DNA of 64,000 bases from Nitrospirota bacterium (GCA_963818475.1 CAWFSF010000002.1:256001-320000); one strand, 5' to 3'. Positions 6,274-53,092 are shown, counted from the first letter of the stretch. The notes: generated from the sequence alone by a model not told the origin. Translations and numbers: made by a program.

Positions 6274-6277
6274 AAAA

Positions 6278-6307
6278 TCTCCGGGAAGGGCAAAGCCCTC
6301 CCCGGAG
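6278..6307 (-). terminator. Stem-loop after aprA (terminator or mRNA stabiliser)
   Basis: CTCCGGGAAGGGCAAAGCCCTCCCGGAG hairpin with T-rich tail on the minus strand. Confidence 0.65.
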
Positions 6308-6319
6308 GTGTGAGTGTTC

Positions 6320-16937: not shown

Positions 16938-16976
16938 CAGTAAGCAGGATTCTGACCACTGGCTACTGCATTCATC

Positions 16977-18225
<1,249 letters not shown>

Positions 18226-18233
18226 AATATCTA

Positions 18234-18320
18234 TTACGGAGCACGGATGACACGGCGGAAAGCAACGGATTGAAGATTTTGATCCGCATTTCCTCCGTGT
18301 ACATCCGTGTCCTCCGTGAT
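18234..18320. repeat. Inverted pair of ~9-mer arrays (CACGGA.. / ..TCCGTG)
   Basis: TTACGGAGCACGGATGACACGG ... TCCGTGTACATCCGTGTCCTCCGTGAT. Confidence 0.8.
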
Positions 18321-18342
18321 AGATTTTCGAAGGGTTTTTCTC

Positions 18343-19635
18343 ATGAAGATCTTCGATTCACAGCACCAGGACATCGCATCGGAACTCAAACGGATCATCA
18401 ACCGCGGCGAGACCGCGACCGACGAAGTTGCCGTCGTTGTAAAAGAGGTCGTGGAGCGCGTGCGCAAGGAAGGCGATCCGGCCCTGCTCGAATACACGGA
18501 GAAGTTCGACCGGGTGACACTCACGCTCAAGGACATCAAAGTAACGCCGCAAGAGATCAAGGACGCCTATAGCCATGTTGATCCGAAAAAGGTGGATGCC
18601 CTGAAGCTTGCTGCCGCGAACATCCGCTCCTTCCACGAGAAGCAAAAGATCAGCTCCTGGGTGAACCAGGAAGCTGACGGCGTTATCCTGGGCCAGCTCG
18701 CGCGCCCGATCCGGAGCGCAGGCGTTTATGTGCCCGGCGGCAAGGCCTGCTACCCGTCATCAGTGCTCATGAACGTGATCCCGGCCAAGGTCGCGGGCGT
18801 GGAACAGCTCATCATGTGCTCTCCCGTTCCGGGCGGAAATCTGAACCCCTACATCCTTGTCGCAGCCGACATCGCCGGTGTGAGCGAGATCTACAAGATC
18901 GGCGGCGCCCAGGCCATCGCGGCCATGGCCTACGGCACGGCCACGGTCCCGAAGGTCGACAAGATCGTGGGCCCGGGCAACATCTATGTGGCAACGGCAA
19001 AGCGGTACGTCTTCGGCCAGGTGGACATCGATATGATCGCCGGACCGAGCGAGATCCTGGTCATTGCCGACGACAGCGCAGACCCGGCCTTTGTGGCATC
19101 GGATCTGCTCTCGCAGGCCGAGCATGATGAGCTTGCCTCGTCGATCCTGATCACGACCTCCCGCGTTTTGGCGGAACAGGTTAACGCCGAGGTCGAACGC
19201 CAGCTCGCGAACCTCTCGAGAAAAGAGATCGCCCGCAAGGCCATCGACCGCTTCGGAGCGATCGTGCTGGTCAAGACTCTGCAGGAAGCGGCCGAAGCAT
19301 CGAACTCCATTGCACCGGAGCATCTCGAGCTTGCCGTGGAGAAGCCCTTTGACCTTCTGGCGCTGATCAAGAACGCGGGCGCCATTTTCCTCGGCCATTA
19401 CACGCCCGAGTCCGTGGGCGACTATATCGCGGGACCGAACCATGTGCTCCCCACGGGCGGCACTGCCCGTTTCTTCTCGCCTCTGTCCACGGACAGCTTC
19501 ATGAAGAAGTCGAGCCTGATCTTCTATACCAGGGAAGGCCTTGACAAGGTTGCCGAGGCCGTGATGCAGATCGCCGATGTCGAAGGTCTGGAAGCACACG
19601 GGAATACTATCCGGATCAGGATGGCGAAGAAGTAA
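18343..19635 (+). CDS. hisD: Histidinol dehydrogenase
   Basis: YVPGGKA, GPGNIYV, IDMIAGPSE, SQAEHD, APEHLEL, GPNHVLPT. Confidence 0.97.
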   Translation: MKIFDSQHQDIASELKRIINRGETATDEVAVVVKEVVERVRKEGDPALLEYTEKFDRVTLTLKDIKVTPQEIKDAYSHVDPKKVDALKLAAANIRSFHEKQKISSWVNQEADGVILGQLARPIRSAGVYVPGGKACYPSSVLMNVIPAKVAGVEQLIMCSPVPGGNLNPYILVAADIAGVSEIYKIGGAQAIAAMAYGTATVPKVDKIVGPGNIYVATAKRYVFGQVDIDMIAGPSEILVIADDSADPAFVASDLLSQAEHDELASSILITTSRVLAEQVNAEVERQLANLSRKEIARKAIDRFGAIVLVKTLQEAAEASNSIAPEHLELAVEKPFDLLALIKNAGAIFLGHYTPESVGDYIAGPNHVLPTGGTARFFSPLSTDSFMKKSSLIFYTREGLDKVAEAVMQIADVEGLEAHGNTIRIRMAKK

Positions 19636-34393: not shown

Positions 34394-35031
34394 ATGATCG
34401 CAATTATCGATTACGGAATGGGCAACTTACGGAGCGTTCAGAAGGGCTTTGAACGCGTGGGCCGCGAGGCCGTGGTCACGAGCGACGCAAAGACGATCTT
34501 AAGCGCAGGCAAGGTCGTGCTGCCCGGCGTCGGCGCGTTCCCGGACTGCATGCGGAACCTGGAGCAGAACGGCCTGATCGACGTGGTACACGAGACCATC
34601 AGATCCGGCAAACCCTTTCTCGGCATCTGCCTGGGGCTCCAGCTCCTGTTCACCGAGAGCGAAGAGTTCGGACTTTCAAAAGGACTGGATATCATCAAAG
34701 GCCGCGTGGTCCGGTTCAAGGGTCCTCAGTTCGAAACGCAGGATCCGAACGCGAAACATTGAAGGTCCCCCACATGGGCTGGAATTCCATTTCGATCAAG
34801 CGGCGGCCACCGGCGCTCCAGGATGTTCCTGACAACAGCCATGTCTATTTCGTGCATTCCTTCCATGTCGTGCCTGACGACAAGAACGTGATCGCCACGA
34901 CAACGGACTACGGCATCGAGTTCGTCTCGAGCATCTGGAAGGACAATATCTTCGCGGTCCAGTTCCACCCGGAGAAGAGCCAGACCCTGGGGTTGTCGAT
35001 ATTGAAGCGCTTCGGAGAACAGAAATCGTAG
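34394..35031 (+). CDS. hisH: Imidazole glycerol phosphate synthase glutaminase subunit (frameshift near 34758)
   Basis: IDYGMGNLRSV, LPGVGAF, LGICLGLQ, VPHMGWN, YFVHSF, QFHPEKS. Confidence 0.96.
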
Positions 35032-35179: not shown

Positions 35180-35925
35180 ATGCTGATCATTCCCGCAATC
35201 GATCTTCAAAGAAGGCAAATGCGTCCGGCTCGAACAGGGGCTCATGGACAAGGCCACGGTCTACTCCGATGATCCCGGCACCACGGCAAAGCACTGGGAA
35301 GCGCAGGGCGCCGAGCTGCTGCATGTGGTCGACCTGAACGGCGCGTTCGCCGGCGTGCCCAAGAACCTCGACGCCATCAAGGCCATCCGGGCCGCCATCA
35401 GGATCCCGATCGAAGTGGGCGGCGGCATCCGCGACATCGCAACGATCGAGACCCTCGTCTCGATCGGCATCGACCGGATCATCCTCGGCACCGCGGCCAT
35501 CGAGAACCCGCGTTCGTCGGCGAGGCCTGCAGGAAGTTCCCGGGCAGGATCATCGTGGGCATCGACGCCAAGGAAGGCCTCGTGGCGATCAAGGGCTGGG
35601 CAGAGGTCACGAAGGTGCAGGCCGTCGACCTCGCCAGGCAGATGCAGGACCACGGCGTTATCGCGATCATCTACACGGACATCAAGCGGGACGGCATGCT
35701 GTCGGGCCCGAACATCGAAGCGACCAAGGCGCTCGCGAAAGCGCTCACCATCCCGGTCATCGCCTCGGGCGGCGTGCATACCATGAAGGACATCGAGAAC
35801 CTGCTGACCGTCAGGCACTCCGGCGTCTCCGGGGTGATCACCGGCAAGGCGATCTACACGGCTCGCTCGATCTGAAGGAAGCGATCACGTTCGTCAAGAT
35901 GAACGACAACCGCTGCGCACGGTAG
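35180..35925 (+). CDS. hisA: ProFAR isomerase (about three frameshifts)
   Basis: [54 protein letters not shown]. Confidence 0.95.
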
Positions 35926-35928
35926 GAT

Positions 35929-36068
35929 CAATTTCCAAATGACAAGCATCAAATCTCAGAATAAACTCCAAATGCCAAAAACCAATCATGAAACTTACTT
36001 CATTTTTAATTTCGGTCATTGGATCTTTGCATATTATTTGCGATTTGTTATTTGTAATTTGTGATTTG
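35929..36068. repeat. Inverted pair of AT-rich heptamer arrays (CAAAT.. / ..ATTTG)
   Basis: AATTTCCAAATGACAAGCATCAAAT..CAAATGCCAAAAACCAAT ... ATTTGCGATTTGTTATTTGTAATTTGTGATTTG. Confidence 0.78.
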
Positions 36069-36085
36069 CTTTATTTAGGAGTCCC

Positions 36086-36944
36086 ATGCTTAACCAAACG
36101 AATCATACCCTGTCTCGACGTAAAAGCCGGCCGCGTGGTAAAAGGCGTCAGCTTCGTGAACCTGCGCGACGCCGGGGACCCGGTCGAGATCGCAAAGGCC
36201 TATGACGAACAGGGCGCCGACGAGCTCACGTTCCTGGACATCACCGCCTCGCACGAGGAGCGCGGCATCATCCTCGACATCGTGCGCCGCACTGCGGAGC
36301 AGGTCTTCATGCCGCTCACGGTCGGCGGCGGCATCAAGGTGCTCGACGACATCAGGAACCTCCTGCTTGCCGGGTGCGACAAGGTCTCGATCAACACCAC
36401 GGCGGTCCACGACCCGGAGTTCATCAAGGCCGCCTCGACCCGCTTCGGCAGCCAGTGCATCGTCGTCGCCATCGACGCCAAGCAGGTGATAGCGCACGAC
36501 CCGGACTTCAAATCGCCCTTGAAATGGGCCGACGACCCGAAGTATAAGTCTCTGCTTCTTTCGCAATCCGCAATCCGCAATCCGCAATCCGAAATTACAT
36601 GGGAGGTCTACACCCACGGCGGCAGAAAGCCCATGGGCATCGATGCCGTGGCCTGGGCGCGGATGATGGCGGAGTACGGCGCGGGCGAGATCCTGCTCAC
36701 GAGCATGGACCAGGACGGACAGAAGAACGGCTACGACCTGGAGCTGACGCGCGCCGTTGCCGAGGCGGTCTCCATACCGGTCATCGCATCAGGCGGCGTG
36801 GGGAACCTGGAACATATATATCAGGGATTGACGACGGGCAAGGCTGATGCTGCGCTGGCTGCTTCGATCTTTCACTTCAAGGAATACACCATCAGGCAGG
36901 CAAAAGAATATTTAAAGGAACGCGGCGTGCCGGTGCGGTTGTAG
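36086..36944 (+). CDS. hisF: Imidazole glycerol phosphate synthase cyclase subunit with ~35-aa insertion (frameshift just after ATG)
   Basis: [58 protein letters not shown]. Confidence 0.96.
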
Positions 36945-36982: not shown

Positions 36983-37372
36983 TTAAAACCTATACCCTCC
37001 CAGAAACGTGCAGACCGTCTTGATGAGCTCGACCTGATTCACCGGTTTGGTGAGATAACCGTTCGCTCCGAGCGCCATCCCCATTTCCCGGTCCTTTACT
37101 TCCCCCTTGGTCGTGATCACGATGATCGGCATGTTGCTGTTCAGCCCGGTGCGCACCCACCTGACCAGCTCGGCGCCGTTCATTTCCGGCATGTTCATGT
37201 CGGTCAGCAGAAGATCGAAGGTGCCGCTCTTCAGCTTGGCAAGGGCGTCGAGCCCGTTCACCGCTTCCGTAATATTGATCTTGAGCATGCGCTTCAGGTT
37301 CATGACAAGGAACATCCGCATGATCGCCGAATCATCCGTCACGAGTATGGATTTATCTGAATAGTTAAACAT
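36983..37372 (-). CDS. Single-domain (CheY-like) response regulator
   Basis: LVTDDS, LLTDMNMPEMNG, IVITT, YLTKP. Confidence 0.92.
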   Translation of the reverse strand: MFNYSDKSILVTDDSAIMRMFLVMNLKRMLKINITEAVNGLDALAKLKSGTFDLLLTDMNMPEMNGAELVRWVRTGLNSNMPIIVITTKGEVKDREMGMALGANGYLTKPVNQVELIKTVCTFLGGYRF

Positions 37373-37487: not shown

Positions 37488-40400
37488 TTACCATCCGGCG
37501 AACCACTTCACCGCTTCCGCAGCGGAGAGCTGATCGAACTTCATCCTGAGCTTGACGAAGAATCCACGGCTCGTGAACTCGGCACGGGAGAAGTCCCGGT
37601 CATTGAATCCCTCGAAATTATAGCCGATGCTGATCCAGAGGTTCTTTGCAGCGGTATAACCCACTGAGGCCTGGCTTCCATAGCTTTTCTGATCGAGGCC
37701 CCAGGAATGCAGCATGCTGCCGCGGAGCCCAACGTCCCAGGACGTGGTGATATCGTATCGCCCTTCGATCCCGATCAGGTCCGTGTATCCGCGGTAGTCG
37801 TCCTGGTCGATCGTCTCCTGCACATACTTGGACCCGTACTGGAATGAGAGCTGGGTGCGGCTGTCCGCCCGATGGTTCAAGACGAGATTGTTCACCAGCC
37901 GCTGGTTCTCGAAGGATACCGCAGCGCTCTGCTGGTCCGTGCGAATGTAGTCGAAGCGGTCCAGAAGGATGATCCGGGTCTCGAATGGCCGGTAAGCGAA
38001 ACCGATCCGGAAGTCTCCGTTGAAATTCTCCGTTCCCGTTGCCGCGACGCTTCGATAGGTTTGCAGACCCGCGGCAAGCCCCAGGCCGCGCCGCACCTCG
38101 CCTACCGCGCCGGTCGTGAAGCTCACCCGCTCCTCGCTTTCAGAAACGCGGCGCTCTGCGCGGCCGGTCCAGGACCACTTCTCCTGGCGGTATCCTGCGC
38201 CGAGCGAAATGGCGGTGAAGTCCTCGGTGCTGCCCGACGCAGGCGGAACATTCGTATTCACCGAGTACGTTCCGCTGTTGCGGATCGTCGCGGTGCGGTC
38301 CACGCCGCCGTCGAGCGACCAGGCCTTCGTGAGCTGCCAGGTCTGCTTCAGCCCCAGGGTGGAGAAAAGCCGCAGGCCGTTCCCGGTCTCCAGCTGCTCC
38401 ATGGTGGAGCTCATCTGGCCGCCGGTCCAGGGCGACGCCCGCAAACCGATCCGGGTGGTCGCCGTGTCAGCCTGCTTGCCTTGGGTAAGCTCCTGATCGG
38501 CAAAGAACGTCGCGGTCGGGTTCAGCCGGTACTCCATGCCCATGGTCGTCCGCGTCGGAAAATCGATGTTGTCGCTGCTGCCGATGGACTGGTCGTGCTG
38601 GACCCTGCCGAAGAAGCGCTCCGTGAACTGATAACGCATGCTGGTATAGATCTGGTCGGACTGGTGCGTTTCACCTCCAGCCAGCGCATCCTCGGCCTGA
38701 CGCAGGCCGGCTGTCACGTCGTATTTCGTTCCCGTGTACCGTCCCCAGAGCTCGGCAAGGTTGCGCGTTGCGTTCGTGGAGAGGTTCTCCTGACGGAAGG
38801 CCTCGCCGCCCACGGACCAGGGCTGGTCAAGCCGGTAGAGCAGGCCTGCGCCCGTCTTCCGGGTGCCGGTTTCGCTGCCGTTCTGCTGGCCCAGGCCGAA
38901 ACCAGTCTCCTGCTCCCGCACGTAGGCCTTGCCGTCCATCCGGTCGCTCTGGTGCTGGACCTCTGCCAGGTATGCGGAACCCTCGGTCGTGACGCCGGCC
39001 TGCTCCGTCTTCGTGGTCGCCGCCTCTGCCCGGACCTTCGTTGCAGGACCGAGCTTCAGTGTGGCATCGACGCCTTCGAGGTTCCCTTCGCCGCCGACCC
39101 TGCCCTCATGCACGTGCGAGACCCCCACTTCCAGCGTCTGATCCAGAAGCTTCAGGGCGCCGCGGCCGCCGTAGGTGTACGACGTATCTGACGAATCATT
39201 GGACTCGTAGGCTGCCACGATGAAGATGGGGTTGAAGCTGCCATCCCTGCTGAATACGGGCGACTTGAAAAAGACCGTCCCCGCCTCGTAATCAATGGTG
39301 TAATCAAGAAAGCGCGTCAGCTGCAGCCGCGAGACAATGACCTCGCTCTTGAACCGGTCCCGGGTCTCGATGGTTATGCTCTCGGAATTGGCCGCGATGT
39401 TCCTGCGCGAGAGCCGGTAGAGGCCCGAGGTGCCGTCTCCCTGGATCTCATCCCTGACATAAGCCTGGTCCGTGTCCGCCAGGAACAGACTGTACTCGAA
39501 GTTCTCGCCCTTCATCTCGGATTTAAAACCCGTGAAGGTGCGGCTGTACCGAGACAGGTCGGTCACGGTCAGACCGGTGTCATAGTCGCCGAACAGGGCG
39601 TAGAACTGGTCGCGTTCCAGCTTGACATAGATGTTCTTCGCGCTCGCCGCATCGTATTGCTGCTCGCCGGCGTCACCGTAGAGGAGGTAATACTTGTTCG
39701 GATCGATGGTCTGGTAGAGGTCCCGTTTCTTGCTGCCGCTCTTTTTGCTGTCATAGGCAGCCGTGATCAGCCACTCTCCCTTGATCATGCCTTTGGCATA
39801 GAACGCCAGCCTGCCCTCTTCAGAGAAGCCGTCGCCGCCCGGCAGCGTCTCCATGTTGCCCGTTACCGTGTCGTAGCCCACCGTGCCCTCGGCAAGGCCC
39901 ACCAGGACCCAGTCGCGGGTCTCGGGTCTGAGCCAGACGCGGATCTCCTGCACCCCCTGTGCGAGCGGGATCCGGACAACCGCCTCCCCGGTGCGCGTGG
40001 TGGCCGCAAGTTCGATGAGCGCCACGCCGTCCTCACTCACCTCATACCTGAACCGTTCGCGCGGTCTGAGCGGTGAGCGGCGCCTGCTGCAGCTCCGTTG
40101 CGCGCTGCTGCGGCAGATAGGGCGGGTCAATGCTGAATTCGCCGAGCGCTCCCTGGCGCGCCGGATGGCCGTCCCGGTCAAGGAGCCGGACAGCGATGAT
40201 CGCCGGGTTCCTGCCGTCGGCAACAAGCCGCGATCGCCCGGGCTCCAGAACAGCCTGCAAGGGAGGGCCTGAATAGTGCATCGAACGCTCCATGCGGCTG
40301 ACCTCGGCGCCTGACGGGTCAAGGACCACCAGCTCGAACCGGTTATCACCGTCAACGAGGTGAATGCCGCGCCAGATGCTGACCCCGACGGTATGGTCGT

Positions 40401-43350
40401 TCTTCTTCACCGTTCCGTCGAAATAGAGCGCATCCACCGGAACGCCGTTCTGGAGGAGCCGCACCGTCATGCTCGGGTCATGCTTGATCGCGATCTTCGT
40501 GCTCGCGATGGCGGGATGGTCGCTGTCAGGCGGCCAGAGCCAGGCAGTACCGGGCTCTGCTGTGTCGAGCCAGGCAGCAGTGTAGGCCGGCATGCTCTTG
40601 TTGTCCGAAACAGCGGCTGTTCCCTTTTCCGGAGCCCAGACCTCACCGGGCCGGAGCCCGATCGTTGCCACGGCCTTCATGCCGCTGGCCGGGCCGCTCT
40701 TGAGGGCGGGGACTACGAGGACCTGCAGAGGCGGCCGCACCTTGAGTTCCACGCGGCGGTTCCGGGTCCGGCCCTGCTCCGTTGCGTTGCTTGCCACCGG
40801 CTCGTCGGGCCCTTTGCCCTCATAGGTGACTTGGTCAGGTGCAAGTCCCAGCGCGTCGGCGAGGTACGACCCGACCGCTGCCGCGCGCTCGAACGACAGG
40901 GCGTGGTTGTCGGGATACCGCGCTTGCAGTCTGCGGCTGATCGGCCGCGAGTCCGTATGGCCGGTGACCGTAATGTGCTGCACGCGCACCTTTCCGAGCC
41001 GGACAAGGAGACGGTCCAGTTCCTTTTTATCATTCCCGGTCAGGACCGCACTGCCGCTCGAGAACTTCGGATGGAGCACGATGTCCGGCACGGGCTGGAG
41101 CTCCTCGCGGGTGCCAATAACGAGCGCGGTGTTCACCGCCGGCGTCCGGTTGTTCCTGGCCTCGGGCGAATCCGACGTAAGCACGGCTCCGGTAGGCAGC
41201 TGCCGGCCTTCGGGACCTTCGAGCGGCACCGCCGCGTCGAACTTGACCATCCCTTCCCAGTTCGCAGGGACCTCAGCGAAACGGAAGGTCAGCGCTCCCG
41301 CGGTTTCCTGAGGCTCGCCGATGGGGATAACGACCGGGGAGGCTCCGGTCGCCGCTCCGTCAACGATTCTGCCGGAAAAGATCACACTGCCCTTCCGGTA
41401 AGATGCCCCCTCAGGGAGCATGATCGAAAGCTTGAGGTTGCGCGCCGGCACCATGCCCACATGCATCGGCATCGTGTACTCAATGAGGTCCTTCCCAGCA
41501 CCCGCGCCCGGTGCGCCGTCTGCGGACCGCTTCGGAGCCGTGGCGATCTCGATGCTTACCTCGCCGGCAGCCTTCGGTTTGAGGCCGAGGTGGAAGTCCG
41601 CACGCCAGAGCGTCCCGCCCTGCAGATCCGCGAACCGGGAGAAGGGGTTCCCGGCAGAGCGGGTGTTCTCTTCACAGGGCAGGATCTCGTATTTCTCGGG
41701 CACGGTCGCAGTGTCAAGCTGAACCACGTGCGTGCCCGGCTTCACCGCAGCGAAGTGGAACATGCCCTGCTCGTCCGTCACCACGTAGGTGCCGTCCTCC
41801 AGGAAGATCCGGACCTGAGCCAGGCCGGCGCCGATGCTCCGGTCAGGATCGCCGCACCCGTCTATGGCCACACGGCCCGCGATGGTCGCCGTGGAGCGGA
41901 ACAGGTCCTCGATGACCAGCACCGTGGCAGTGGCGGCGTTCGATGCAGAGCCGATCACGGTCGTGGCTACAGCCGTGTTAACGGCCTTGCCGGGATTGGC
42001 GCCTGCTCCGACCGACGCCACATAGGCAACCAGTGCCCTGCCTGACGGTCCCAGGTCGCCGACGGAGAAGGTAAGCCCCCGGCCGTCAGGGGTAACCGTG
42101 GGATCGGCCAGCCGCACGCCGTTCAGCCGGGCCGAGCCTTTCTCGTAGCGGAATCCCGCGGGGCAGCCGGTCCGTGACACCGACACCCGGCGCAAACGCC
42201 GTCGTATCGGCGTTCTCCACCGTAAGAGTATAGGGAACGAAATCTCCTACAGCTGCGGTCGCCTTTGCCGCGGTCTTCTGGAGCCAGAGCCCGGTTCCCA
42301 CGGGGTCCACAGGAATGTCGATATGGAGCGCCGGACCGGGGTTCACCACGAATTCCTCGCCTCTTGATCCGGGATCCACCATGGCAAAGGGGCTGCCCGG
42401 CAGCGCCTGGATCGTCGAGGTGGGCACTGCCGAAGGGGCCCGGTACGCAGCCGGCGGGACAACATCGAGGCGGTAGCGTCCGGGCGCGATATAGGGGAAC
42501 CGGAAACCGCCGGCGGCAAAAGTGTAGCTCGCGCCGCCGCTGTCCATGGCTGTGCCGCCGGAAGTGACCGAGGCCGGGAATGCTGACACGCCGTCATCGC
42601 CATACACCGTGGCAGGCAGGCCGGTCGTTGTGTCAACGAGGGTGACCGTGGCCCCGTCCACGGGCAGGCCGGTCGTGCTGTTGAAGACCAAACCATAGGG
42701 ATCGACCAGAGCAAGGTCGACGCGGCTGTCGGTGCTGTCGGCCACGTCCACGTAGGAGCCGTTGATCCGGGAATTGACGGCAACGCTCAGGATCCCGTTC
42801 CCGCTCACGGCGGGCCCGGGACCGGTCTGGATGTAGCCGGTGAATACGCCCGTGTTCGGGCCGGTCTCGCGAAGACGCAGAACCTCTATGTCATTGGTGG
42901 CGCTGACTCCGACCGTCACCAGGACGGTCTCGATGGCCGCAGGATCGAGGTCCTGGTCAAGGTCGGTCAGGCGGATGAAGAGCGGTTCGCCGGTATGGTA
43001 TGTGCTTCCTGGCACCAGCGGGACAGGCGCGCTGAGGTTGATCGGCGCGGTGCTCGGGAACTGTACCGGATCGGGCAGAACGGCAAAAGGACCTGCGCTC
43101 GTGCGGTAGTCCGTCAGTGAAATGACCGTCGGACGGCTGACGGCGACGCCGGGGCATACTGCAGGAACTCAAGGACCGACGGCGTGCGCGTTGCCACGGT
43201 GGTGATCCGCACCAGGTTGGAACTGGAGGCTACGCCGGCGCCGTCCACGGTATAGGCCGCCGTGGCCGTATTATCGATAAGGGTCCCCGGCGGCACTGCC
43301 CAAAGAGATGAGGACGAAAGAATAAGAATGAAAAGGACCAGGATTGCCAT
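37488..43350 (-). CDS. Very large outer-membrane protein (~1950 aa): N-terminal strand, Ig-like/DUF11 domains, OmpA-like peptidoglycan-binding domain, C-terminal beta-barrel (frameshifts near 43130, 42160, 40045; start uncertain)
   Basis: Joined from ORFs 43114-43500, 42086-43015, 40042-42195, 37488-40355. Signal peptide then VPPGTLIDNTA; DUF11 (LQK..YTLTVEN..TDRLP..VNTA); OmpA (GHTDS..N..LS..RA..V..GKGP..PVASN..GR..NRRVE); long amphipathic beta-strand C-terminus. Confidence 0.85.
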
Positions 43351-43537
43351 CAGTCCCGATGATGCTGCCCGGGAAAAACAAGCAGCCGCAGGAGCGCATT
43401 CCGCGCCCCTGCGGCTGATGATCGAATTCTTTTCCAAGCAGCAGACGCAGCCCGTCCGTGCTGCCCATGCTCCGGGCAACCGGTCTGACGACTGCATCAC
43501 TGTTGCGGGAAAAGTGGTTCATACTGCGAACTGCTCC

Positions 43538-44656
43538 TTACTGGACCACGACCTGGAACTTGATCACTGCCGATGACGAGAGTGGGATCGTAAGCCCGCT
43601 CACCGTCACGGTATTGGCAGTGAAGTTCGCCCCGTCTCCGTCTGCGTTCGTGTTGGTCTTGCATCCGCCGTTCACCACGATGCCCTCCCCTGCGACGCAG
43701 GTGATCGTAACGCCGTCATTGAACTGCGTGTTAAAGGCCAATCTGCCTGCAGCGATCTCAGCAGCAAGGCTGTCGGTGATGGACACATTATCGGCTTGAG
43801 AACCGGTCGCGCCGTTCGTCACCGTAATGGTGTAGGTGATGACCGCTCCGGGGATCATCTTGGGATTTGACGAGCTGAACGGATCGGAATAGACCACTGC
43901 GGTTTTGGTGATCGTCAGGGCTGCTGCGGTCACCCGGTACGCGCTCCGGTCGGAACCCTCTCCGTCATATTGCGTGTCCGTCCCCACGCTGGCGTTGGCT
44001 GCATCGGCAAAGACCACGTCCACGCCGAGCAGGTTGTTCGCGGCACCGGAGGAGTCCGCCGTCAGCGCGCCAAGACCCGCTCCGCCCGCGTTATGCGTTG
44101 TAGCAATAAGAGCGTAGGCGGCTATATCATTGGTGGCCTGGCCTGCGGGAATGTCTGCCACGATGTAGACCGTCGCGGTTGCATCGGAGACCAGTTCGTC
44201 AATGATAGTCGCAGTGTCCGCACCCGCCTGGTATCCCGCTGTTCCGTTGGTCTCAACAAAGACCTGAACGTTCGCGGCGTCGAAGGAATCGGCCGCATCT
44301 CCGTTGAAGGGATCAGTGGCAGCTGCCGCCGCGAGACTATAGTCCTGCGTTGCGTTGCCATTGTTCCTCACCGTAAAGGTCTGCACCTGCGAGGTTGAAC
44401 TGGGTGCCGTGCTCACATAACTGCCGTCCGTGGTCGTCACGGTGAGGTTGACCTTTGTGTCAACCGCAAAGGTCGCCGTGGGGCCCGTGCTGAGCGGAGT
44501 CTGTGCCACGCCGCTGACCTCGTAGTTGACCGTGGCGCTGTTGGTGATCAGTGTTCCTGAAGCCGTGCCCGCGGCCTCTGCCGACAGCGGGGCGACGATG
44601 GCGATTGCCGCGATCAGCAGCAGCGCCATAAATCTGTAGATCCTGTTCGTATTCAT
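43538..44656 (-). CDS. Exported DUF11-family protein, 372 aa, candidate major pilin
   Basis: Strong RBS AAGGAGG, 165-bp upstream spacer, signal peptide ending AEA; mature N-terminus AGTASGTLITNSATVNY; C-terminal incomplete DUF11 ending VIKFQVVVQ. Confidence 0.85.
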   Translation of the reverse strand: MNTNRIYRFMALLLIAAIAIVAPLSAEAAGTASGTLITNSATVNYEVSGVAQTPLSTGPTATFAVDTKVNLTVTTTDGSYVSTAPSSTSQVQTFTVRNNGNATQDYSLAAAAATDPFNGDAADSFDAANVQVFVETNGTAGYQAGADTATIIDELVSDATATVYIVADIPAGQATNDIAAYALIATTHNAGGAGLGALTADSSGAANNLLGVDVVFADAANASVGTDTQYDGEGSDRSAYRVTAAALTITKTAVVYSDPFSSSNPKMIPGAVITYTITVTNGATGSQADNVSITDSLAAEIAAGRLAFNTQFNDGVTITCVAGEGIVVNGGCKTNTNADGDGANFTANTVTVSGLTIPLSSSAVIKFQVVVQ

Positions 44657-44821
44657 GTAATTCCTCCTTCGTAGTACTTCACCATTTCGTTCAGGTAGTT
44701 TATTCTGCTGCACGTGTTCTTCGCTTCTTATCAGTTTAATATCTGCAGTTGCACCACACTCCTTTCAACAATCAGTTTTATCAAGTCTTGTGAACTTGCT
44801 TGCATAGATATAAAAACCTTC

Positions 44822-45317
44822 TCATTTCACCATGGCCCGGAACGAAACGCTGCCTTTGCCGCCCGGAGCCAGCGGTTTGCCCAGGGTCCAGCGTATATGC
44901 GTATAATCCCCGGCCGTGGCCCGCTTCGACACTCCCTTGGCATCGGTCTTCGTCAGCTTATCCGGGGCTGCATAGCGCTTTCCCCTGGTCCACGGAGAAT
45001 TCGATCTTCATGCCCTGGCCCTCGGCGCTGTTCTCGACGTAGACAACGTGTTCGGACACGGGATTCGTTATCACGACATTCTCTACAGGCTTTTTGTCGA
45101 TGTTCGCATACTGCGTGGTGAATATGACCACATCGCCCGGTATGACCTTGGCTGCTGCGGCATCCACCCGCGTCACCTCTTTTTCACCTTTGGTGTTCGT
45201 TGCGGTGACCTCGACCTCGGAAATTGATATCAGTTCAAGGCTCCCTTTTTTCTGCGCTGTTGCAATCGTCGGCAGCAGCAGAACCAGCAGCACCATGCTC
45301 ACAACCGTTTTTGTCAT
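44822..45317 (-). CDS. Small exported DUF11-like single-domain protein (frameshift near 44980)
   Basis: Signal peptide; VIPGDVVIFTTQYAN..VVITNPV..FSVDQGK then, frame-corrected, RYAAPDKL..YTHIRWTL..APGGKGSVSFRAMVK*. Confidence 0.82.
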
Positions 45318-45341
45318 TATCGTATGCCCTCCTTGTAGTGC

Positions 45342-46380
45342 TCAATTTATTTTCACGTCAAACGTAATGGTCTGGACCGGGGAAGACGCGCTGTTCAGGT
45401 CCCCGAGCCTCACCGTCACCGTCCCGGCGGTCGTTACGTTCACGTCTCCTGCGTCGGCATCCGCGGCATCGGTCAACAGGCTGTTGTTCAGCCTGAGCGT
45501 TCCGGCCACAGAGGTCGTATTTGTCGGAACCGGGTCCGAGATCACCACACCGGTTGCCGTGCCCGACCCGGACACGGTCACGGTGATGGTATACCGGATG
45601 GTTGCACCGGTGACGGGCTGACCGCCTGCGGAGGTCACCACTGCGCTTTTCAAGAAGCGAGACCATTGCGCTGGCAACACGATAAGCTGACGCTGCCGAG
45701 TGCGCGCTGTCCCTGATCCCGTCGGCAACACCTGCTCCATCGGCAAACACGGTGTCCACCGCAGCCTGGGTGTTCGGCCCAACAGTCTCCGGGACCACGC
45801 CACCCAGTACGCCGACGACGCCGCCGGACCGGGCTGTTGCGACGAGGCTCAGCGCGGAGACATCGCCGCTCACCTGGGCTCCCGGCATGTCGGCAACGAT
45901 ATAGACCGTGCGCACGGCGTCAGCTGCCAGCTCGTCAAGATAGGTCCCCGTGTCCTCCGCAGCCTGATACCCTGCGGTCACGCCGCTCTCAGCGAATACC
46001 TGCGGATTCGCTGCATCGAAGTTGTCGGTCCCTCCGAAGGGGTCAGCAGCAGGGACCGCTGCAAGGGCGAAATCCTGCACGCTGTTGCCGGTGTTCGTCA
46101 CCGTGAAGGTCAGCACCTGAGAAGCTGCACCGGGAGTGACGCTCACAGGGACGCCGTTCGTTGTCGCTGCGATGAGATTGATCTTTTGGTCGACCACCAG
46201 GCTGGTCAAGGCAGTGATCGGGGGCTGGGGGCTTCCGCCATAGTCATACGTGGCGATCGCCAGGCTCGATATGGTCACCCCCGCGGGCGTGCCGGCGGCG
46301 CGGGCGGAGCGCTCCATGATCGTCACCAATACAGTCAGGGCGATGAATGCCGCCAGAACATATTGTGCTGTTTTCTTCAT
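45342..46380 (-). CDS. Exported DUF11-family protein, paralog of 43538-44656, candidate minor pilin (frameshift near 45655)
   Basis: Signal peptide then AGTPAGVTISSLAIATY; shared middle domain (TFTVTNTGN..DELAADA..TVYIVAD..DTVFAD); C-terminus LKS..IRYTITV..ISDPVP..TITFDVKIN. Confidence 0.85.
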
Positions 46381-46403
46381 AGCGAGCGCCCTTGTGCTCC
46401 TCA

Positions 46404-49400
46404 TCACTTCACCCTCACCCGGAACTGCAGCGCAAAGGAGGGAGTGTTCGTGCCGCTCGCACCGTTGAACGTTCCGCTCAGGGATATTTTGATATTCGTA
46501 ACACTGCCGTCGAAACCGTTCACGTCGGGAACCGGCAGGTAGTCGTAGGTTGCACCGTTGTTGCTCGAGAACGAGATGCTGTCAAAAATATTCGACAGGC
46601 CTCCAAAGGCGTAACTGAGCCCGCTCGCTATGGCGCCGTCCGAGAATGCAATGGGGCCGGAACCGGCGACACCGAAGTCACCGGCAAAGAACTCGGTTAA
46701 GGATGGAAGGGGATCGGTCACTACCACAGTCCCTGCAGCGCCTCCCCCGGTATTCGTGGCCAGGATCGTGTACTGCATGCTCGATCCGGGGATGGCCTTG
46801 GGACTGGTGGTGCCGTTCACCGGGTCGGAGTAGGTATTCACGGACTTGACCATCACGATATTGGGGTGGCTTACTGAGGTGAACAGCACACTGGAACTAT
46901 TGTTGGCCATATTCGGATCGGTCTGGTCGTTGGCCGTAATGCTTGCGCTATTGGTAATGGTCACTCCGCCCGCGGTCACCATGGCGGTTATGTTCAGCGC
47001 TTTTGTCGCATCCTTGGCCACGCTGCCCGCCGTCCAAACGCCGGTCCCGCTGTTGTAGGCGCCGCCGCCGTTGTCCGACACATAGGTGACACCCGCGGGC
47101 AGCAGATCGGAAACCATTATGCCGGTCGCATTGTTCGGACCGCTGTTCCCGATGGTGAGCGTATAGACGACGGTGGTTCCCTGGTTTGGCGTTGAGTTGC
47201 TCACGGTCTTGGTGATGTAGAGGTCGGTGCTCTGCACGGTGATCACCGCGCTGGCGGTGTTGTTGGAACTGTTGGTGTCCCCCTGATCCGCCGACGTCCT
47301 CACGGCCGTGTTCGTGATGGTGCTCCCTGCCGTGCCGGTATTGACCGTGGCGTTGATGGTCAGCGTTGCCGTTGCTCCGCTGTTCAGGGCGGCGATGCTC
47401 CAGATGCCGGTCACGCTGGTATAGGTGCCTGCGGTCGCAACGGACGACGTCAAGGTCAACTCCGCGGGCAAGAGATCGGTCACCACGACCGTTGTTGCGT
47501 TGTTCGGGCCGTTGTTCCTGAGCCCGACGGTGTACACGACCGCGCCCCCTTCGTTGGGCGTTGCATTGTCCACCGTCTTGGTCACTGCCAGGTCCGTCGC
47601 GCCAACCACAAGGGACGCGCTCGCTGAATCGTCGGCTGGATTGATGTCGCTCTGGGTCACGGCGGTGATCGACGCCATGTTGTTGATCGTCTGACCCATG
47701 GTACCTGCGTTGACAGTGGCCGCCAGCAGCATGGTGGCCGTCGCTCCCGAGTTGAGCGGGCCAACGGTCCAGGCGCCCGAACCGCTGTTGTAACCGCCTT
47801 GCGTCACCGACGATCCTCCGGCAGCGTAGGTGAGTCCCGCGGGAAGCGCGTCGCTCACGGTTACGTTCGTGGCATTGGTCAGGGACGGATTGCTGATCAC
47901 GATTGTGTAGGTGACGGTCGCGCCGATTGCCGGCGATGTATTGTTCACGGACTTCGTGACCGCAAGGTCCGTGATCCCCACGCCGACCACCAGCGAATTG
48001 ATCGACGAGTTGTTCGCGTTCACCGGATCCGCCTGGGCTGCTGACACGATCTCGGCCATATTGTGAACGGTGGTGCCGTTCGCTGTTGCATTCTTCACGG
48101 TCACATTGATGGTGAGGGCCGCGCTCGCACCGCTCGCGATCGGCCCGGCTATGGTCCAGGTGAGCGTCGGCGCGGAATAGGTCACGGACCCGGTGGTGGC
48201 CGATGCCGAATTGTACGTAAGGTTCCCGGTGTCGATCACGTCCCGCACCGCGATGTTCGTTGCAGGGTGCGGACCGTTGTTGGTGAGCACCACGGAATAG
48301 GAATAGGCTTCGTTCTTGTTCGGCGAGGGGTTGCTCGAAGTCTTGGCCACGGATAGGTCTGCACGCTGCACCGTGATCGACGCGTTCGCCGTGTTGTTCG
48401 CCGTGTTGGGGTCGCCGACGCTCGCGCCGTTGATGGAGGCCATATTCGTGATCGTCATGCCGTTCGTGCCCGCGTTGACCGTGGCAGTGATGGTCCTGAC
48501 CGCGGACCCGCCTGCCATGATGGTGCCTGCGGACCAGAGACCGCTCCCGCTCACGTAGGTGCCGGTGCCTGCGGACGAGACATAGGTCAAGCCGGCGGCG
48601 AGCAGGTCCGAGACCGTGACCGAACCTGCGCTGTAGAGCCCGTTGTTTGTGACGGTAATCGTATAGGTTATGGAATTGGCCTCGTTCGGTGCCGCATTAT
48701 CGACTGTCTTGGACAGGGACAGATCAACGCCGCTGATGAAGACCGAAACGCTGGCACTATTGTTCGCGGTCATGGGATCTGCCTGATCGGATGTTGCCAC
48801 CACCGCCGTGTTGGTCGCTGTTGTACCCATGGCACCATCCACATCCGCCGTGATGCTGAGCGTTGTGGTCGCGCCGCTCGCGAGGTTGCCGACGGTCCAC
48901 GTGCCGCTGTTGTAGGACCCTTGGGTGGCGCTGGACGTCGAATACGTCAGTCCCGAGGAAAGGACGTCGGTCACCGTCACGCCTGTAGCGAGGGAGGAGC
49001 CCAGGTTTTGGAGCGTGACCGTGAAGACCACGCTCCCGCCGGTCGGAGGAGAAGTGTTGTTCACGGTCTTGAAAAGGGCGAGATCCGCGCCGCCGATCGT
49101 GAGCGAATTGCTTGCCGTATTATTGCCGCTCACCGGATCATAGATGGCCGAAGCGGTGATGCTGGCGGAATTGGCAAAGGTCGCTCCCTGGGTGCCCGCA
49201 TTCACGGTCACGGTGATGGTCAGCGATGCGTTCGCGTTGTTCGCGAGCGAGGGCACTTCCCACACACCCGTGGTGCGGTTATAGGTCCCGGCCCCGCTGT
49301 CCGAGACCCAGGTCACGCCAGCCGGAAGCATATCGGTCACCTGGATGCCGGTCGAGTTGTTCGGTCCGTTGTTCGTGACCGTAAGCGTGTAGGTCACGGT

Positions 49401-50573
49401 CTCCCCTTCTGCGGGCGTGGTTTTGTCCGCCGTCTTGGCCATGCTCAGGTCTGCGGCCTTCTGCACGGTCAGTGTGTCGGTCCTAAGTTGATTGGTGTGG
49501 TAGGAGGCGTCGATTGAGTCGAGATAGGTGACGGTCACTGTCTCGATGGCTGTCACCTGGAGCGAGCCGTTCCCGGTAACCGGCGCGCCCGTTGCTGTTG
49601 TGAGAGACCCGGTGAAGATGCCCGTATTAACGTCGGTTTCGGTCAGCGTCACGGTCTCGCTGTCGCCGGTCGGGCTAGTTACCGAGACCGTAAGAGTCTG
49701 GACCGCGGCGTGATTGGTGTTCACATCCTGGTCCGTCATGTTTATGTAAAGGGTTTGGCCGGAATTGAGCTGGGTCACGTCGCCGGTTCCGGCAAGGTTC
49801 GAGACGAACGTGACCGTACCGGTGGCGGGATAGGTGCCCAACGGCGTGACCGCATCGGTGGCATTGGCAGGCATGCACTGGGAGAGATTTGTTGAGCACG
49901 TATTGGATATATCAACGAGGTCCGCCGAGAGAGACTGGGCGCTGTTCGAGCTCCCAATGAAGAATCTGATGGGAGAGGTATCGGTCAGGCCTGTTTTGGC
50001 TTTAAAGGTGGCGTAAGGGATGCGGAAATCGAGGAAATAGTCCCGCCCACCATTCGTCGACGAGTCTGCGGTAACGGTCCGGAAATTGACGTTCAACTGC
50101 CACTGCTCGGACCAGACGGTGACTTCAGTCTTGTCGGACGGGTCACCCAGCGTCCCCTGAGAGGTGTTCTGACCGATCTCGATCGTATCGGGATTATCAA
50201 TGCCGTTCAGCATCACCATCCACTCATAGTCGCTGAAGTCATTGTCCGTATCGATCAGGAACCCCCAGCCGAACGGCTGAAGGCCGGTACCCTGATTATT
50301 CAACGCGTCCCCATCCACACGAATACGATAGAACATATAGGTGCCGTCATTAAACAGGTAAGCTGAGGGATAGGTCGACGTATTGGTGACGATGTCCCGG
50401 GGGTCGTTGGCTCCGCCTTGGGAGTCACTGATGATGTCCGTAAGGCCGGACATGGTTTTCGTCAAAACGATCCACTCGGAGTCCAGCGGCCAGGCAAAGA
50501 GATATGCCGGATAAAGGCAGATGGCCAGAAGGGTGATGATGAGTATTTTTTTTAAGTTCCTCATGAAATTCAT
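46404..50573 (-). CDS. Large exported adhesin-like protein with seven complete and one incomplete DUF11 repeats
   Basis: Signal peptide, unique N-terminal domain, repeats DLxxxK..YT.TV.N.GP..V.D.LP..N.A..DP..NN.AS; last domain ends FALQFRVRVK. Confidence 0.93.
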   Translation of the reverse strand: MNFMRNLKKILIITLLAICLYPAYLFAWPLDSEWIVLTKTMSGLTDIISDSQGGANDPRDIVTNTSTYPSAYLFNDGTYMFYRIRVDGDALNNQGTGLQPFGWGFLIDTDNDFSDYEWMVMLNGIDNPDTIEIGQNTSQGTLGDPSDKTEVTVWSEQWQLNVNFRTVTADSSTNGGRDYFLDFRIPYATFKAKTGLTDTSPIRFFIGSSNSAQSLSADLVDISNTCSTNLSQCMPANATDAVTPLGTYPATGTVTFVSNLAGTGDVTQLNSGQTLYINMTDQDVNTNHAAVQTLTVSVTSPTGDSETVTLTETDVNTGIFTGSLTTATGAPVTGNGSLQVTAIETVTVTYLDSIDASYHTNQLRTDTLTVQKAADLSMAKTADKTTPAEGETVTYTLTVTNNGPNNSTGIQVTDMLPAGVTWVSDSGAGTYNRTTGVWEVPSLANNANASLTITVTVNAGTQGATFANSASITASAIYDPVSGNNTASNSLTIGGADLALFKTVNNTSPPTGGSVVFTVTLQNLGSSLATGVTVTDVLSSGLTYSTSSATQGSYNSGTWTVGNLASGATTTLSITADVDGAMGTTATNTAVVATSDQADPMTANNSASVSVFISGVDLSLSKTVDNAAPNEANSITYTITVTNNGLYSAGSVTVSDLLAAGLTYVSSAGTGTYVSGSGLWSAGTIMAGGSAVRTITATVNAGTNGMTITNMASINGASVGDPNTANNTANASITVQRADLSVAKTSSNPSPNKNEAYSYSVVLTNNGPHPATNIAVRDVIDTGNLTYNSASATTGSVTYSAPTLTWTIAGPIASGASAALTINVTVKNATANGTTVHNMAEIVSAAQADPVNANNSSINSLVVGVGITDLAVTKSVNNTSPAIGATVTYTIVISNPSLTNATNVTVSDALPAGLTYAAGGSSVTQGGYNSGSGAWTVGPLNSGATATMLLAATVNAGTMGQTINNMASITAVTQSDINPADDSASASLVVGATDLAVTKTVDNATPNEGGAVVYTVGLRNNGPNNATTVVVTDLLPAELTLTSSVATAGTYTSVTGIWSIAALNSGATATLTINATVNTGTAGSTITNTAVRTSADQGDTNSSNNTASAVITVQSTDLYITKTVSNSTPNQGTTVVYTLTIGNSGPNNATGIMVSDLLPAGVTYVSDNGGGAYNSGTGVWTAGSVAKDATKALNITAMVTAGGVTITNSASITANDQTDPNMANNSSSVLFTSVSHPNIVMVKSVNTYSDPVNGTTSPKAIPGSSMQYTILATNTGGGAAGTVVVTDPLPSLTEFFAGDFGVAGSGPIAFSDGAIASGLSYAFGGLSNIFDSISFSSNNGATYDYLPVPDVNGFDGSVTNIKISLSGTFNGASGTNTPSFALQFRVRVK

Positions 50574-51745: not shown

Positions 51746-53092
51746 TCAGGCGAGGTTGTACTTTTTGAGCTTCTCGTGCAGCGTGGACCGCGACATGCCG
51801 AGGATCTTTGCGGCGGTGCTGCGGTTGCCCCCCTCTGCATGCAATACCTTGAGAATATATTCCCGCTCCATCTCCGCCAGCGGCCGATAGCCTTCGCTGC
51901 CGGCCTGCCTCCCTGCATCGCCCCTGTCGCGCTCTTCACCGGTGATCTCCCGCGGCAGGAGGTCGACCGGGACCAGGCTGCTGCGCGACAGCACTATGGC
52001 ACGCTCGACGATGTTCTTGAGCTCCCGAACGTTCCCCGGCCAGGCATAGGCCTGCATAAGCTCCAGCGCCCGGGGAGAGAAACCGGTGACGTGCTGCTTC
52101 AACGTGGCGTTGAACTGCCGCACGAAATAATCGATCAGCACCGGAATATCCTCGGGGCGTTCGCGCAGCGGCGGCATGGTCACAGGGAAGACCTTGAGCC
52201 GGTAGTAGAGGTCCTCGCGGAAACGCCCTTCCGCCACAGCCCGCTCCAGGTCCCGGTTGGTCGCCGCGATGACGCGCACATTGACCGCAATGTCCCGCGT
52301 GCCGCCCACCCGTTTGAAGCGCTGCGTTTCGAGCACGCGGAGCAGCTTCGGCTGAACTGCCAGCGGCATATCGCCCACCTCATCGAGCAGCACCGTGCCG
52401 CCGTCAGCCACCTCGAAGAGGCCCTGCTTCTGCTCCCGCGCATCCGTGAAGGCCCCCCGCTCATGGCCGAACATCTCGCTCTCCAGCAGCGTCTCCGAGA
52501 GCACGGCGCAGTTGATATCGAGGAACGGCCGGTCGCTCCGTGCACTCCTTCGATGGATCTCCCGTGCCGCCAGTTCCTTGCCCGTGCCGCTTTCGCCGAG
52601 CAGCAGGGTTGTCGTCTCGGCATTCTCGGCCATCAGATCGATCATATGGTGCAGTGTCTGGATCGCCATGGACGTGCCGACCAGGGGGTGGTCCAGCAGC
52701 TGCCGGTAGTAGCGGTTCTCGATCCGCAGTTTCCGCGTCTCGAGGATCCGGTTGATCAGCGCCGACAGCTCGAGGAGCTGGGCCGGTTTGGTGAGATACT
52801 GCTCGGCGCCGAGCTTGATCGCCTCGACCGCGTTCCCGATGGAACCCCAGCCGGTCATGACCACCACCGATGCCCGGCATCCCTGATCTTTCAGACGCCG
52901 CAGCACATCGAGCCCGGCCATGTCCGGAAGCTTCATGTCAAGCAGGACCACATCCGGCGCAAAGCTCTCGGCAAGCGTAAGCGCATCGCTCCCGGTCTCC
53001 GCGTGCGCTGCGTCCCAGTTCAGCGATTTGAAGTAATGGAGCAGCGGCGTTATTACGGGGCGTTCGTCGTCTACCAGCAGGATCCTCGGCAT
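51746..53092 (-). CDS. Sigma54-dependent response regulator (REC-AAA+-Fis HTH)
   Basis: LLDMKLPD, GESGTGKE, ESEMFGHERGAFTDA, GRFREDLYYRL, WPGNVREL, AAKILGMSRSTL. Confidence 0.95.
   Translation of the reverse strand: MPRILLVDDERPVITPLLHYFKSLNWDAAHAETGSDALTLAESFAPDVVLLDMKLPDMAGLDVLRRLKDQGCRASVVVMTGWGSIGNAVEAIKLGAEQYLTKPAQLLELSALINRILETRKLRIENRYYRQLLDHPLVGTSMAIQTLHHMIDLMAENAETTTLLLGESGTGKELAAREIHRRSARSDRPFLDINCAVLSETLLESEMFGHERGAFTDAREQKQGLFEVADGGTVLLDEVGDMPLAVQPKLLRVLETQRFKRVGGTRDIAVNVRVIAATNRDLERAVAEGRFREDLYYRLKVFPVTMPPLRERPEDIPVLIDYFVRQFNATLKQHVTGFSPRALELMQAYAWPGNVRELKNIVERAIVLSRSSLVPVDLLPREITGEERDRGDAGRQAGSEGYRPLAEMEREYILKVLHAEGGNRSTAAKILGMSRSTLHEKLKKYNLA

Follow-up and report, generated by a model that had tools for sequence, protein, structure and literature searches.

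In chaperone-usher pili, the tip adhesin has an acceptor only, the shaft subunits have both an N-terminal extension and a groove, and one end subunit lacks one of the two halves. The Ig-like CnaA and CnaB domains of SpyTag/SpyCatcher, SnoopTag/SnoopCatcher and the sortase pili form Lys-Asn/Asp isopeptide bonds, which split versions re-form between two chains; the bonds between subunits of Gram-positive pili are made by enzymes. Here we describe five genes (A–E), all on the minus strand and each with a Sec-type signal peptide, that fill positions 37488–50573 of a 64-kb stretch of DNA from a Nitrospirota bacterium (GCA_963818475.1, CAWFSF010000002.1:256001-320000; hereafter the window). Judging from the logic of the sequences and from structure models, this operon probably encodes a surface fibre of a diderm bacterium that is built on a split DUF11 (CLIPPER) domain, with subunits joined by donor strands and locked by isopeptide bonds.

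DUF11 has been renamed CLIPPER, and one such domain has been solved (9IFR) with an intramolecular Lys715–Asn806 isopeptide bond and Asp748 as catalyst (PMC12617251, Protein Sci 2025; this and the other papers cited here were accessible in part, and what we say of them refers to those parts). The operon belongs to the same family by sequence and has Lys, Asp and Asn at the same positions, and the seven complete repeats of A look like ordinary intramolecular CLIPPER domains. It differs in that the Asn strand missing from the ends of B, of D and of A is found N-terminally in a different protein, whereas the bonds described in the accessible part of PMC12617251 lie within single polypeptides.

The principle of donor-strand exchange followed by a spontaneous isopeptide lock is already known, from BsaA and an archaeal thread; new here are the DUF11 family, an anchor of its own and the wide spread. 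In BsaA of Clostridium perfringens (TasA family), the N-terminal strand inserts into the sheet of the next monomer and a spontaneous Asn–Lys isopeptide bond follows; the residues concerned are N35, K74 and E56, and mutating them abolishes oligomers (bioRxiv 10.1101/2024.11.04.621531). BsaA resembles the proposed fibre in strand exchange and isopeptide lock, but its fold and family (TasA/camelysin-like, SipW-processed), its Gram-positive host, its Glu catalyst and its lack of an outer-membrane anchor set it apart; a Pfam scan of the locus pieces reported no TasA-type family, only DUF11-type, OmpA and CarboxypepD_reg matches, and the operon's triad, N-D-K, belongs to a CnaA-like domain. The archaeal thread of Saci_0406 subunits stacks head to tail through N-terminal donor-strand complementation, with isopeptides proposed from Asn57 to the Asp24 alpha-amino group of subunit n+2 (PMC9715654, Nat Commun 2022). 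It too has a putative cap protein encoded next door, but it is archaeal, its proposed bonds are not Lys–Asn between neighbours, and its description gives it neither a Pfam domain nor an outer membrane. For Tat-fimbriae, finally, there are models with donor strands and a switch from closed to open (PMC11821415). DUF11, a barrel anchor in the outer membrane and a diderm host are absent from all three systems.

Type 1 and P pili share the polarity logic of the operon, but here the subunits are two-domain proteins of ~345 aa rather than single pilin domains, a covalent lock is proposed, and the anchor is fused to its own barrel. The PapC usher (PF00577) and PapD chaperone (PF00345) gave no match in the 91%-complete genome, where an E. 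coli control was positive, and none in the Pfam scan of the locus. Sortase (PF04203) was likewise without a match in the genome, with controls positive, and there is no LPXTG at the protein ends. An earlier reading of the window (the first-pass annotation) had seen none of these genes in the locus, and their absence now extends to the whole 91%-complete genome. Compared with sortase pili and Tag/Catcher pairs, the chemistry that we propose is the same, but the split would be natural and would serve polymerization, without a sortase. The Type V pili of Bacteroidia are made of lipoprotein pilins that an arginine protease matures and that exchange strands on the surface; here none of the five signal peptides is followed by a lipobox Cys, and no FimA/Mfa-type family appeared in the Pfam scan. 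Our full-text literature search, which covered few subscription journals and no supplements, found no description of a split-DUF11 pilus, so that within this literature the prior account that the first-pass annotation had advised looking for did not turn up. Papers pairing DUF11 with pilins proved irrelevant: they concern DUF1137 in S. meliloti, signal peptide use in Synechococcus, and a single-chain grappling hook of Litorilinea with 49 DUF11 domains.

A DUF11 domain divided between secreted proteins

Pfam recognizes eight DUF11 stretches in protein A (682 bits), seven of which are complete repeats of 120–130 aa and the eighth truncated. Each complete repeat runs, in the repeat alignment, from DLxxxK through VTD.LP and NAGT.G.TI.N.A to a last strand, and Lys, Asp and Asn stand in one chain within a single domain. 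Their spacing in A (K to D 34, K to N 88) is close to that of 9IFR (33 and 91), a mapping made by the residue numbers in PMC12617251 and by spacing rather than by alignment. This single-chain arrangement is absent at the C-termini of A, B and D: their last domains have the Lys strand and the Asp strand (in A, within IVMVKSV and VVVTDPLP, respectively) and stop ahead of the Asn strand, in ..FRVRVK, ..FDVKIN and ..FQVVVQ. The coverage of the DUF11 profile tells the same story: it spans 1–113 of 114 positions in the A repeats and 3–96 in the internal DUF11 domain of E, but only 9–84 of 114 in the last domain of B and 9–83 of 114 in a D homologue. PF01345/TIGR01451 matches score 29.9 bits for the C-terminal part of B (cut-off 24.6), 29.9 bits for D (TIGR01451) and 27.6 bits for the internal domain of E. 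Turned into a profile, the repeats of A match the C-terminal domains at positions 2–54; the match of this profile to the N-terminus of D at 82–102, where the donor is expected, is weak (i-E 0.51) and alone is no evidence. Sequence searches of the PDB returned no match for A and, with a D profile, only chance DSCAM matches at E ~0.8.

B, D and E, once mature, begin with the Asn strand that these last domains lack. Written as the pattern G[TV].[IVLAF].[NS].[AL][STAVI][VAIL].[YW], it has three matches in the 127,996 six-frame codons of the window, all directly after the signal peptides of these three proteins. The signal peptidase site of D (AEA/AGTASGTLITN...) falls exactly in what is, in a complete repeat, the loop ahead of AGT.G.TI.N.A. 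Mature D consists of donor strands (residues 48–87), an Ig-like domain in the middle and, at ~263–391, a DUF11 acceptor cut short. The resulting distribution is polar: A, which has no N-terminal donor, is acceptor only, B and D have both halves, and E is donor only. Protein C is different again. It has the truncated shape and ends where the acceptors end (..SVSFRAMVK), but it has no donor and lacks the Lys/Asp pair: of 45 homologues, at least 90% have 'VE' and 'TNP' at those positions. No donor-like motif was found in any of 41 C-like open reading frames (ORFs), and a cluster look-up for C returned only unnamed 'conserved repeat domain' clusters.

Residue conservation bears out this division. 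Searching a collection of 5.8 billion proteins gave 115 homologues of D at E ≤ 0.001, or 116 sequences with D itself, among which Lys270, Asp314 and also Tyr294 (116/116) are invariant. Asn58 has nine exceptions, comprising four gaps in truncated entries, three Ser and two others, and it is invariant in an 82-row alignment of D (A1). The Ser or Gly found at this position marks the B-type paralogues of the Nitrospirota group, including B of the window, and these still keep Lys and Asp.

To place the operon among its relatives, one genome per GTDB species was scanned; 183 relatives were found, and the counts that follow come from the best 80 of the 183 loci, with synteny taken from BLAST of the window's pieces against their 6,396 ORFs. 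Most of the loci are from Sphingomonadales (Sphingomonas, Novosphingobium, Sphingopyxis, Allosphingosinicella, Qipengyuania), isolates and complete genomes among them; the others are from two Nitrospirota, one Methylotenera, one Burkholderiales and one gammaproteobacterium. The order [tip]-B-C-D-E recurs in all of these groups, the tip gene at times following E. The D-type pilins (n = 42) have the Asn in 41 and Lys and Asp in all 42, and the B-type pilins (n = 32) have Asn in 31 and Lys and Asp in all 32. The 27 A-like tips have unrelated heads and end in the same kind of truncated domain, with Lys in 26, Asp in 25 and a donor-like motif in none. Conversely, 62 of 63 E-like proteins begin with TISN.A...W after the signal peptide, and the sole exception looks truncated. 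Some loci have two different tip genes (L055:15736-16776 and 16871-18637) or tandem D-type pilin genes (L020:3969-5177 and 5315-6574). One subfamily of tips (loci L026 and L055) lacks the acceptor Asp, and its L055 member also lacks the Lys; judged by these residues, such tips would join non-covalently.

Anatomy, polarity, residue conservation and synteny are thus established here, and much of what the first-pass annotation had read from the window holds. Its seven complete repeats in A, from DLxxxK to (A)GT.G.TI.N.A, are borne out by Pfam and by the repeat alignment, its polar distribution of donors and acceptors is the one we find, and its expectation that the pattern and the K/D/N residues would be kept in homologous loci is met with across phyla. 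Two of its counts need amending. It had four genes ending in a domain cut short, which is right for the shape of A, B, C and D, but C, without Lys and Asp, is no fourth covalent acceptor; and it had three genes beginning with the missing element, which the pattern search confirms for B, D and E, except that the donor of B in the window has Ser for Asn.

Modelled pairing of D with itself, and the proposed anchor protein E

Mature D (48–391) was modelled in two copies with the 82-row alignment, which holds D and 81 of the 115 homologues, B-type paralogues and clearly truncated or over-long entries being excluded. The model supports pairing between chains, with an ipSAE of 0.61 (runs 0.61, 0.65 and 0.58) against 0.00 for the best control. 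The mark set for this score is reached by 20 of 30 proteins solved as same-chain pairs and by one of 23 solved as single chains, although this calibration holds only roughly for D, since an alignment of its own was used. The runs share at least 85% of their contacts, with a partner pLDDT of 88 or more. They show an asymmetric interface, open and head to tail: residues 263–325, 376 and 390–391 of copy 1 meet residues 48–87 of copy 2, plus parts of its middle domain (120, 222–236 and 249), and the reciprocal contact is absent. As modelled, this is the geometry of an open-ended polymer and not of a swapped dimer. Residues 58–68 pair with 305–316, and 79–87 lie beside 266–274; the closest pairs include 314–60, 270–76 and 270–80. 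Fold searches with the D monomer gave only generic matches (integrin legs, Saf and CfaB pilins, Gram-positive adhesins), with query TM-scores of at most 0.35, SafDAA-dsc (5y9h_B) and CfaB fusions (3f85) being among the weak ones at ~0.25.

Protein E is composed of a signal peptide, the orphan donor, Ig-like domains that include a complete DUF11 domain, a CarboxypepD_reg-like domain, an OmpA-like domain, a conserved beta-rich region and a C-terminal barrel. Its last 870 aa, modelled in AF2 with 43 homologues (alignment A2; pLDDT 74.3, pTM 0.60), form ~32 strands over residues 291–853. Pfam has no match in 955 aa of the C-terminal part. A profile of the barrel reaches 4,521 cluster representatives at E ≤ 0.001, 3,458 at ≤ 1e-10 and 2,223 at ≤ 1e-30, among 1.84 billion, and the barrel forms the C-terminus of proteins of ~1,500–2,800 aa. 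Among the best 150 entries of this family, 123 are full length, and in 71 of the 123 the donor pattern lies within the first 140 aa; the first 25 without it comprise 17 with a looser I/V-x-N motif after the leader and eight that lack this too. The most conserved part of E in alignment A2 is the beta-rich region ahead of the barrel (residues ~100–300 of the 37491–40100 piece), with many invariant Tyr, Asp, Gly and Arg. This region, conceivably a plug or a docking domain in the periplasm, had no family match; SprA_N, suggested from language-model features at 0.88, lies under the lead threshold.

The OmpA-like domain is a clear match to PF00691 (56.1 bits, cut-off 27.2; residues 378–480 of the third ORF piece). 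It was not found at E ≤ 0.01 in the three intact E homologues scanned, from Sphingomonas (L017), a gammaproteobacterium (L035) and Methylotenera (L020), and peptidoglycan binding is therefore an extra of this lineage. Thus the first-pass description of E as an OmpA/barrel protein stands in that both parts are predicted here, but the OmpA domain is particular to this lineage. Among other very large barrels, those of Deinococcus SlpA/SDBC (8ae1, 7zgx), LptD and SprA of the type 9 system invite comparison, but the TM-scores are too low for membership; the best for the E barrel, to the Deinococcus SlpA entries, are 0.28–0.30, and FimD resembles it only generically (9fy9_D, 0.23). With all query TM-scores at or below 0.35, we assign neither D nor the E barrel to a family. 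The SlpA barrel is preceded by an SLH domain, and in this lineage the E barrel likewise has a peptidoglycan-binding module ahead of it.

Proposed fibre and alternative readings

We infer from these data a fibre that would assemble as follows. The DUF11 gene would have been cut in the loop ahead of the Asn strand, the acceptors of A, B and D stopping before that strand and the donors of B, D and E starting with it. In the cell, the N-terminal strands of one subunit would complete the last domain of its neighbour in trans, and the donor Asn would react with the acceptor Lys, aided by the Asp, to form a covalent link. The chain would lead from E, the anchor, through D repeated n times and possibly B to A, the adhesin tip: the donor of E would enter the acceptor of a first D, the donor of D the acceptor of the next D, up to the acceptor of the tip, with every N-terminus pointing outward. 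The giant outer-membrane barrel of E would hold this chain at the cell surface and may serve for passage across the membrane as well, a role suggested by its size only; in this lineage its OmpA-like domain would bind peptidoglycan as well. Growth could be tip first, as in chaperone-usher pili, with A or C opening the first pilin and the E donor terminating and anchoring the fibre, or base first, as in curli, with the exposed E donor opening the first secreted D and A or C capping the end; the two orders fit equally well. C, conserved between B and D, acceptor-shaped and, from its residues, chemically inert, could bind a donor strand reversibly as a cap, as an initiator or nucleator, or as a strand-holding chaperone. 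Because the AF2 monomer of D looks closed, we also speculate on a domino mechanism, in which an orphan half would push out the strand that a subunit has docked on itself, leaving it free for the next subunit.

That monomer is one of several points that weigh against such a fibre. Mature D, modelled alone (pLDDT 96.2, pTM 0.84), has its residues 1–40 at pLDDT 93–96, which in this model means an N-terminus docked on its own chain, and self-complementation in cis seems sterically feasible. B and D might then be circularly permuted DUF11 proteins, stable monomers of the envelope with an intramolecular isopeptide bond, with trans pairing left to A and E, if it occurs at all. We keep this as a rival because docking in the monomer is the outcome that had been set beforehand as speaking against trans pairing; of the modelling that the first-pass annotation had proposed, the two-copy part came out as it expected, with the N-terminal strands in the neighbour's C-terminal domain, and the monomer did not. 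Yet FimA, a real donor-strand pilin, can also fold as a self-complemented monomer (PMC6615685), so that docking by itself leaves trans and cis undecided. What makes cis folding distinctly unlikely in our view is that B and D would have no role for the conserved orphan halves, the acceptor in 27 tips and the donor in 62 of 63 E proteins, that B-type proteins which have lost their own Asn retain Lys and Asp, and that the two-copy model chose trans, with long strand pairing, whereas DSSP finds the N-terminal segment of the monomer only in two-residue bridges. The same facts speak for trans pairing: tips hold a conserved reactive acceptor without a donor, E holds a conserved donor with its own DUF11 domain already complete, and the Nitrospirota B-type proteins, although without the Asn, keep the other two residues.

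The covalent lock and the repetition of D meet objections of their own. The donor of B in the window has Ser, so that a covalent bond is impossible at one junction here at least; of the 27 tips, two lack Asp, one of them also Lys; and K270–N58 is not among the closest pairs listed for the two-copy model, the score of which may in any case echo the likeness of two halves of a split domain to intact DUF11 folds. One might accordingly suppose a donor-strand fibre without interchain isopeptides, in which K, D and N are kept for folding and hydrogen bonding, the more so as the triad is certainly missing at some junctions (the B donor here, C, and those two tips) and as the N35A mutant of BsaA is described as still yielding SDS-stable oligomers (bioRxiv 10.1101/2024.11.04.621531). 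But all three residues are invariant exactly where the solved CLIPPER domain bonds, and Lys and Asp are gone together in C, which points to a linked chemical role; we think a wholly non-covalent fibre very unlikely. Unlikely, though not to that degree, is a strand-linked adhesin stalk of fixed stoichiometry, with A, B, D and E joined once each, anchored in the E barrel and having no repeating shaft. One copy of each protein accounts for the polarity equally well, nothing shows that D repeats, and the tandem D-type genes of L020 look as if genes set the length; against this, the D donor and D acceptor pair in the two-copy model, with an open-ended geometry, and D bears both halves with an invariant triad, so that there is no sequence bar to self-addition. 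Two further points bear on the fibre as such: the analysis turned up no export route, energy source or chaperone for it, and Foldseek found only generic barrels for E (TonB-dependent receptors, LptD, SprA, FimD), with no close solved relative. Taken as a whole, then, the isopeptide-locked fibre already sketched in the first-pass annotation keeps its donor/acceptor split, its polarity and its triad, and loses C as a covalent acceptor and the Asn of the B donor, with the monomer model standing against it.

Going further is possible only tentatively, and we lean somewhat against the following being right in full: that the operon represents a new class of diderm pilus, assembled without usher, sortase, type IV machinery or protease; that a natural split isopeptide Tag/Catcher drives irreversible, chaperone-free polymerization of monomers that rest closed until an orphan half (the E donor, or the acceptor of A or C) opens them in turn; that E is initiator or terminator, anchor and a ~32-strand translocon for folded Ig-like subunits; that C is a 'reverse' chaperone or cap that accepts a strand; and that the system is widespread, as the 2,223 E-barrel clusters and the culturable Sphingomonas, Novosphingobium and Sphingopyxis would suggest.

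Gene models, genomic context and implications

Five secreted genes are present, as the first-pass annotation had it, but B, C and E are interrupted in the assembly by five 1-base frameshifts in total, which it had read through silently; its start for D, in contrast, is the likely one (Table 1). The frame changes were placed by tblastn with intact homologues. They look, from the sequences compared, like assembly errors, because hisH and hisA in the same window are split alike (each into two overlapping ORFs), homologues are intact, four of the five sites have one base fewer in short-read contigs, and the assembly is in seven contigs (91% complete). In those contigs, which come from relatives in four metagenome runs, there is exactly one base fewer at 45652 (B), 44982 (C), and 42164 and 40059/40060 (E); no indel is listed at the fifth site, ~43126–43156 (E). 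The runs listed, none of them of RNA, have small shares (≤0.11); their contigs were used for indel inspection alone, uncovered parts being uninformative. E homologues from better assemblies are single ORFs of 1447–1965 aa (63 loci). On these grounds (hisH and hisA broken, homologues intact, one base fewer at four sites) programmed frameshifting and pseudogenization of B, C and E were rejected. Since hisH and hisA are broken, indel errors are to be expected throughout the assembly, and the gene calls of this genome should be read accordingly.

Table 1. Positions in the window of the operon's genes, of the proposed strands and residues, and of neighbouring features
Feature	Position	Strand	Remarks
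Gene A, tip or fibrillar adhesin (putative)	46404-50573	-	1389 aa, intact; signal peptide, variable head, 7 complete DUF11/CLIPPER repeats, last domain a truncated acceptor
Complete DUF11 repeats of A	about 46866-49457	-	
Truncated C-terminal acceptor of A	~46407-46865	-	
Gene B, putative minor pilin paralogue, donor and acceptor	45342-46407	-	frame change near 45646-45656
Donor of B	46246-46281	-	pattern match; Ser replaces Asn
Gene C, small secreted protein	44822-45317	-	one DUF11-like domain; frame change near 44964-44986
Gene D, putative major pilin	43538-44713	-	391-aa ORF, intact; likely start 44656; mature from Ala48
Donor of D	44522-44557	-	pattern match after signal peptide
Asn58 of D, proposed isopeptide Asn	44540-44542	-	donor strand; 107/116; in modelled interface
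Lys270 of D, proposed isopeptide Lys	43904-43906	-	first strand of acceptor; 116/116; in modelled interface
Asp314 of D, proposed catalytic Asp	43772-43774	-	116/116; touches partner residue 60 in model
Gene E, proposed anchor	37488-43500	-	~2000 aa; four ORF pieces; frame changes near 43126-43156, 42152-42165, 40049-40117
Donor of E	43252-43287	-	pattern match; orphan donor strand
Complete DUF11 domain of E	~41926-42295	-	
OmpA-like domain of E	40756-41064	-	PF00691
Predicted C-terminal outer-membrane beta-barrel of E	37542-39230	-	~32 long antiparallel strands in model
CheY-like receiver	36983-37372	-	stand-alone; directly downstream of E
Sigma-54-dependent response regulator	51746-53092	-	upstream of A, beyond adk
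hisF	35988-36944	+	His_biosynth Pfam match starts at residue 38
hisA	35244-35875		two overlapping ORFs
hisH	34394-35031		two overlapping ORFs

The operon is flanked by hisB, hisH, hisA, hisF, the CheY-like receiver, adenylate kinase, the sigma-54 response regulator and glutamine synthetase III. The receiver and the response regulator might control the operon. In hisF, the ORF opens with an odd stretch of ~35 aa, rich in Cys, Leu and Ile, ahead of the His_biosynth domain, and the true start probably lies further downstream. G+C is 0.59–0.66 over the operon (38001–50000) and 0.54–0.57 in the flanks; the rise could stem from the Ala/Gly/Thr-rich proteins or from acquisition by transfer, which the patchy spread of the operon over phyla would fit. 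A second, paralogous system lies in the same genome on contig C1 (~8.4–18 kb; loci L083-L092, L095), with E-like barrel, pilin-like, C-like and tip-like genes. Its E-like barrel has 45% identity, with eight stops within the match, and frame changes riddle this copy too.

If the proposal is right, a widespread covalent pilus joins the short list of Gram-negative fibre types, and nature already uses, for assembly, the split-isopeptide trick of protein engineering. A large uncharacterized family of giant outer-membrane barrel proteins, of 1,500–2,700 aa, would then gain a role, as would the small 'conserved repeat domain' proteins. The system is experimentally accessible because intact operons occur in cultivable Sphingomonadales, and the K/D/N triad offers clean mutants and a mass-spectrometric signature. 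As the donors of B, D and E differ, new orthogonal pairs of the Tag/Catcher kind could follow.

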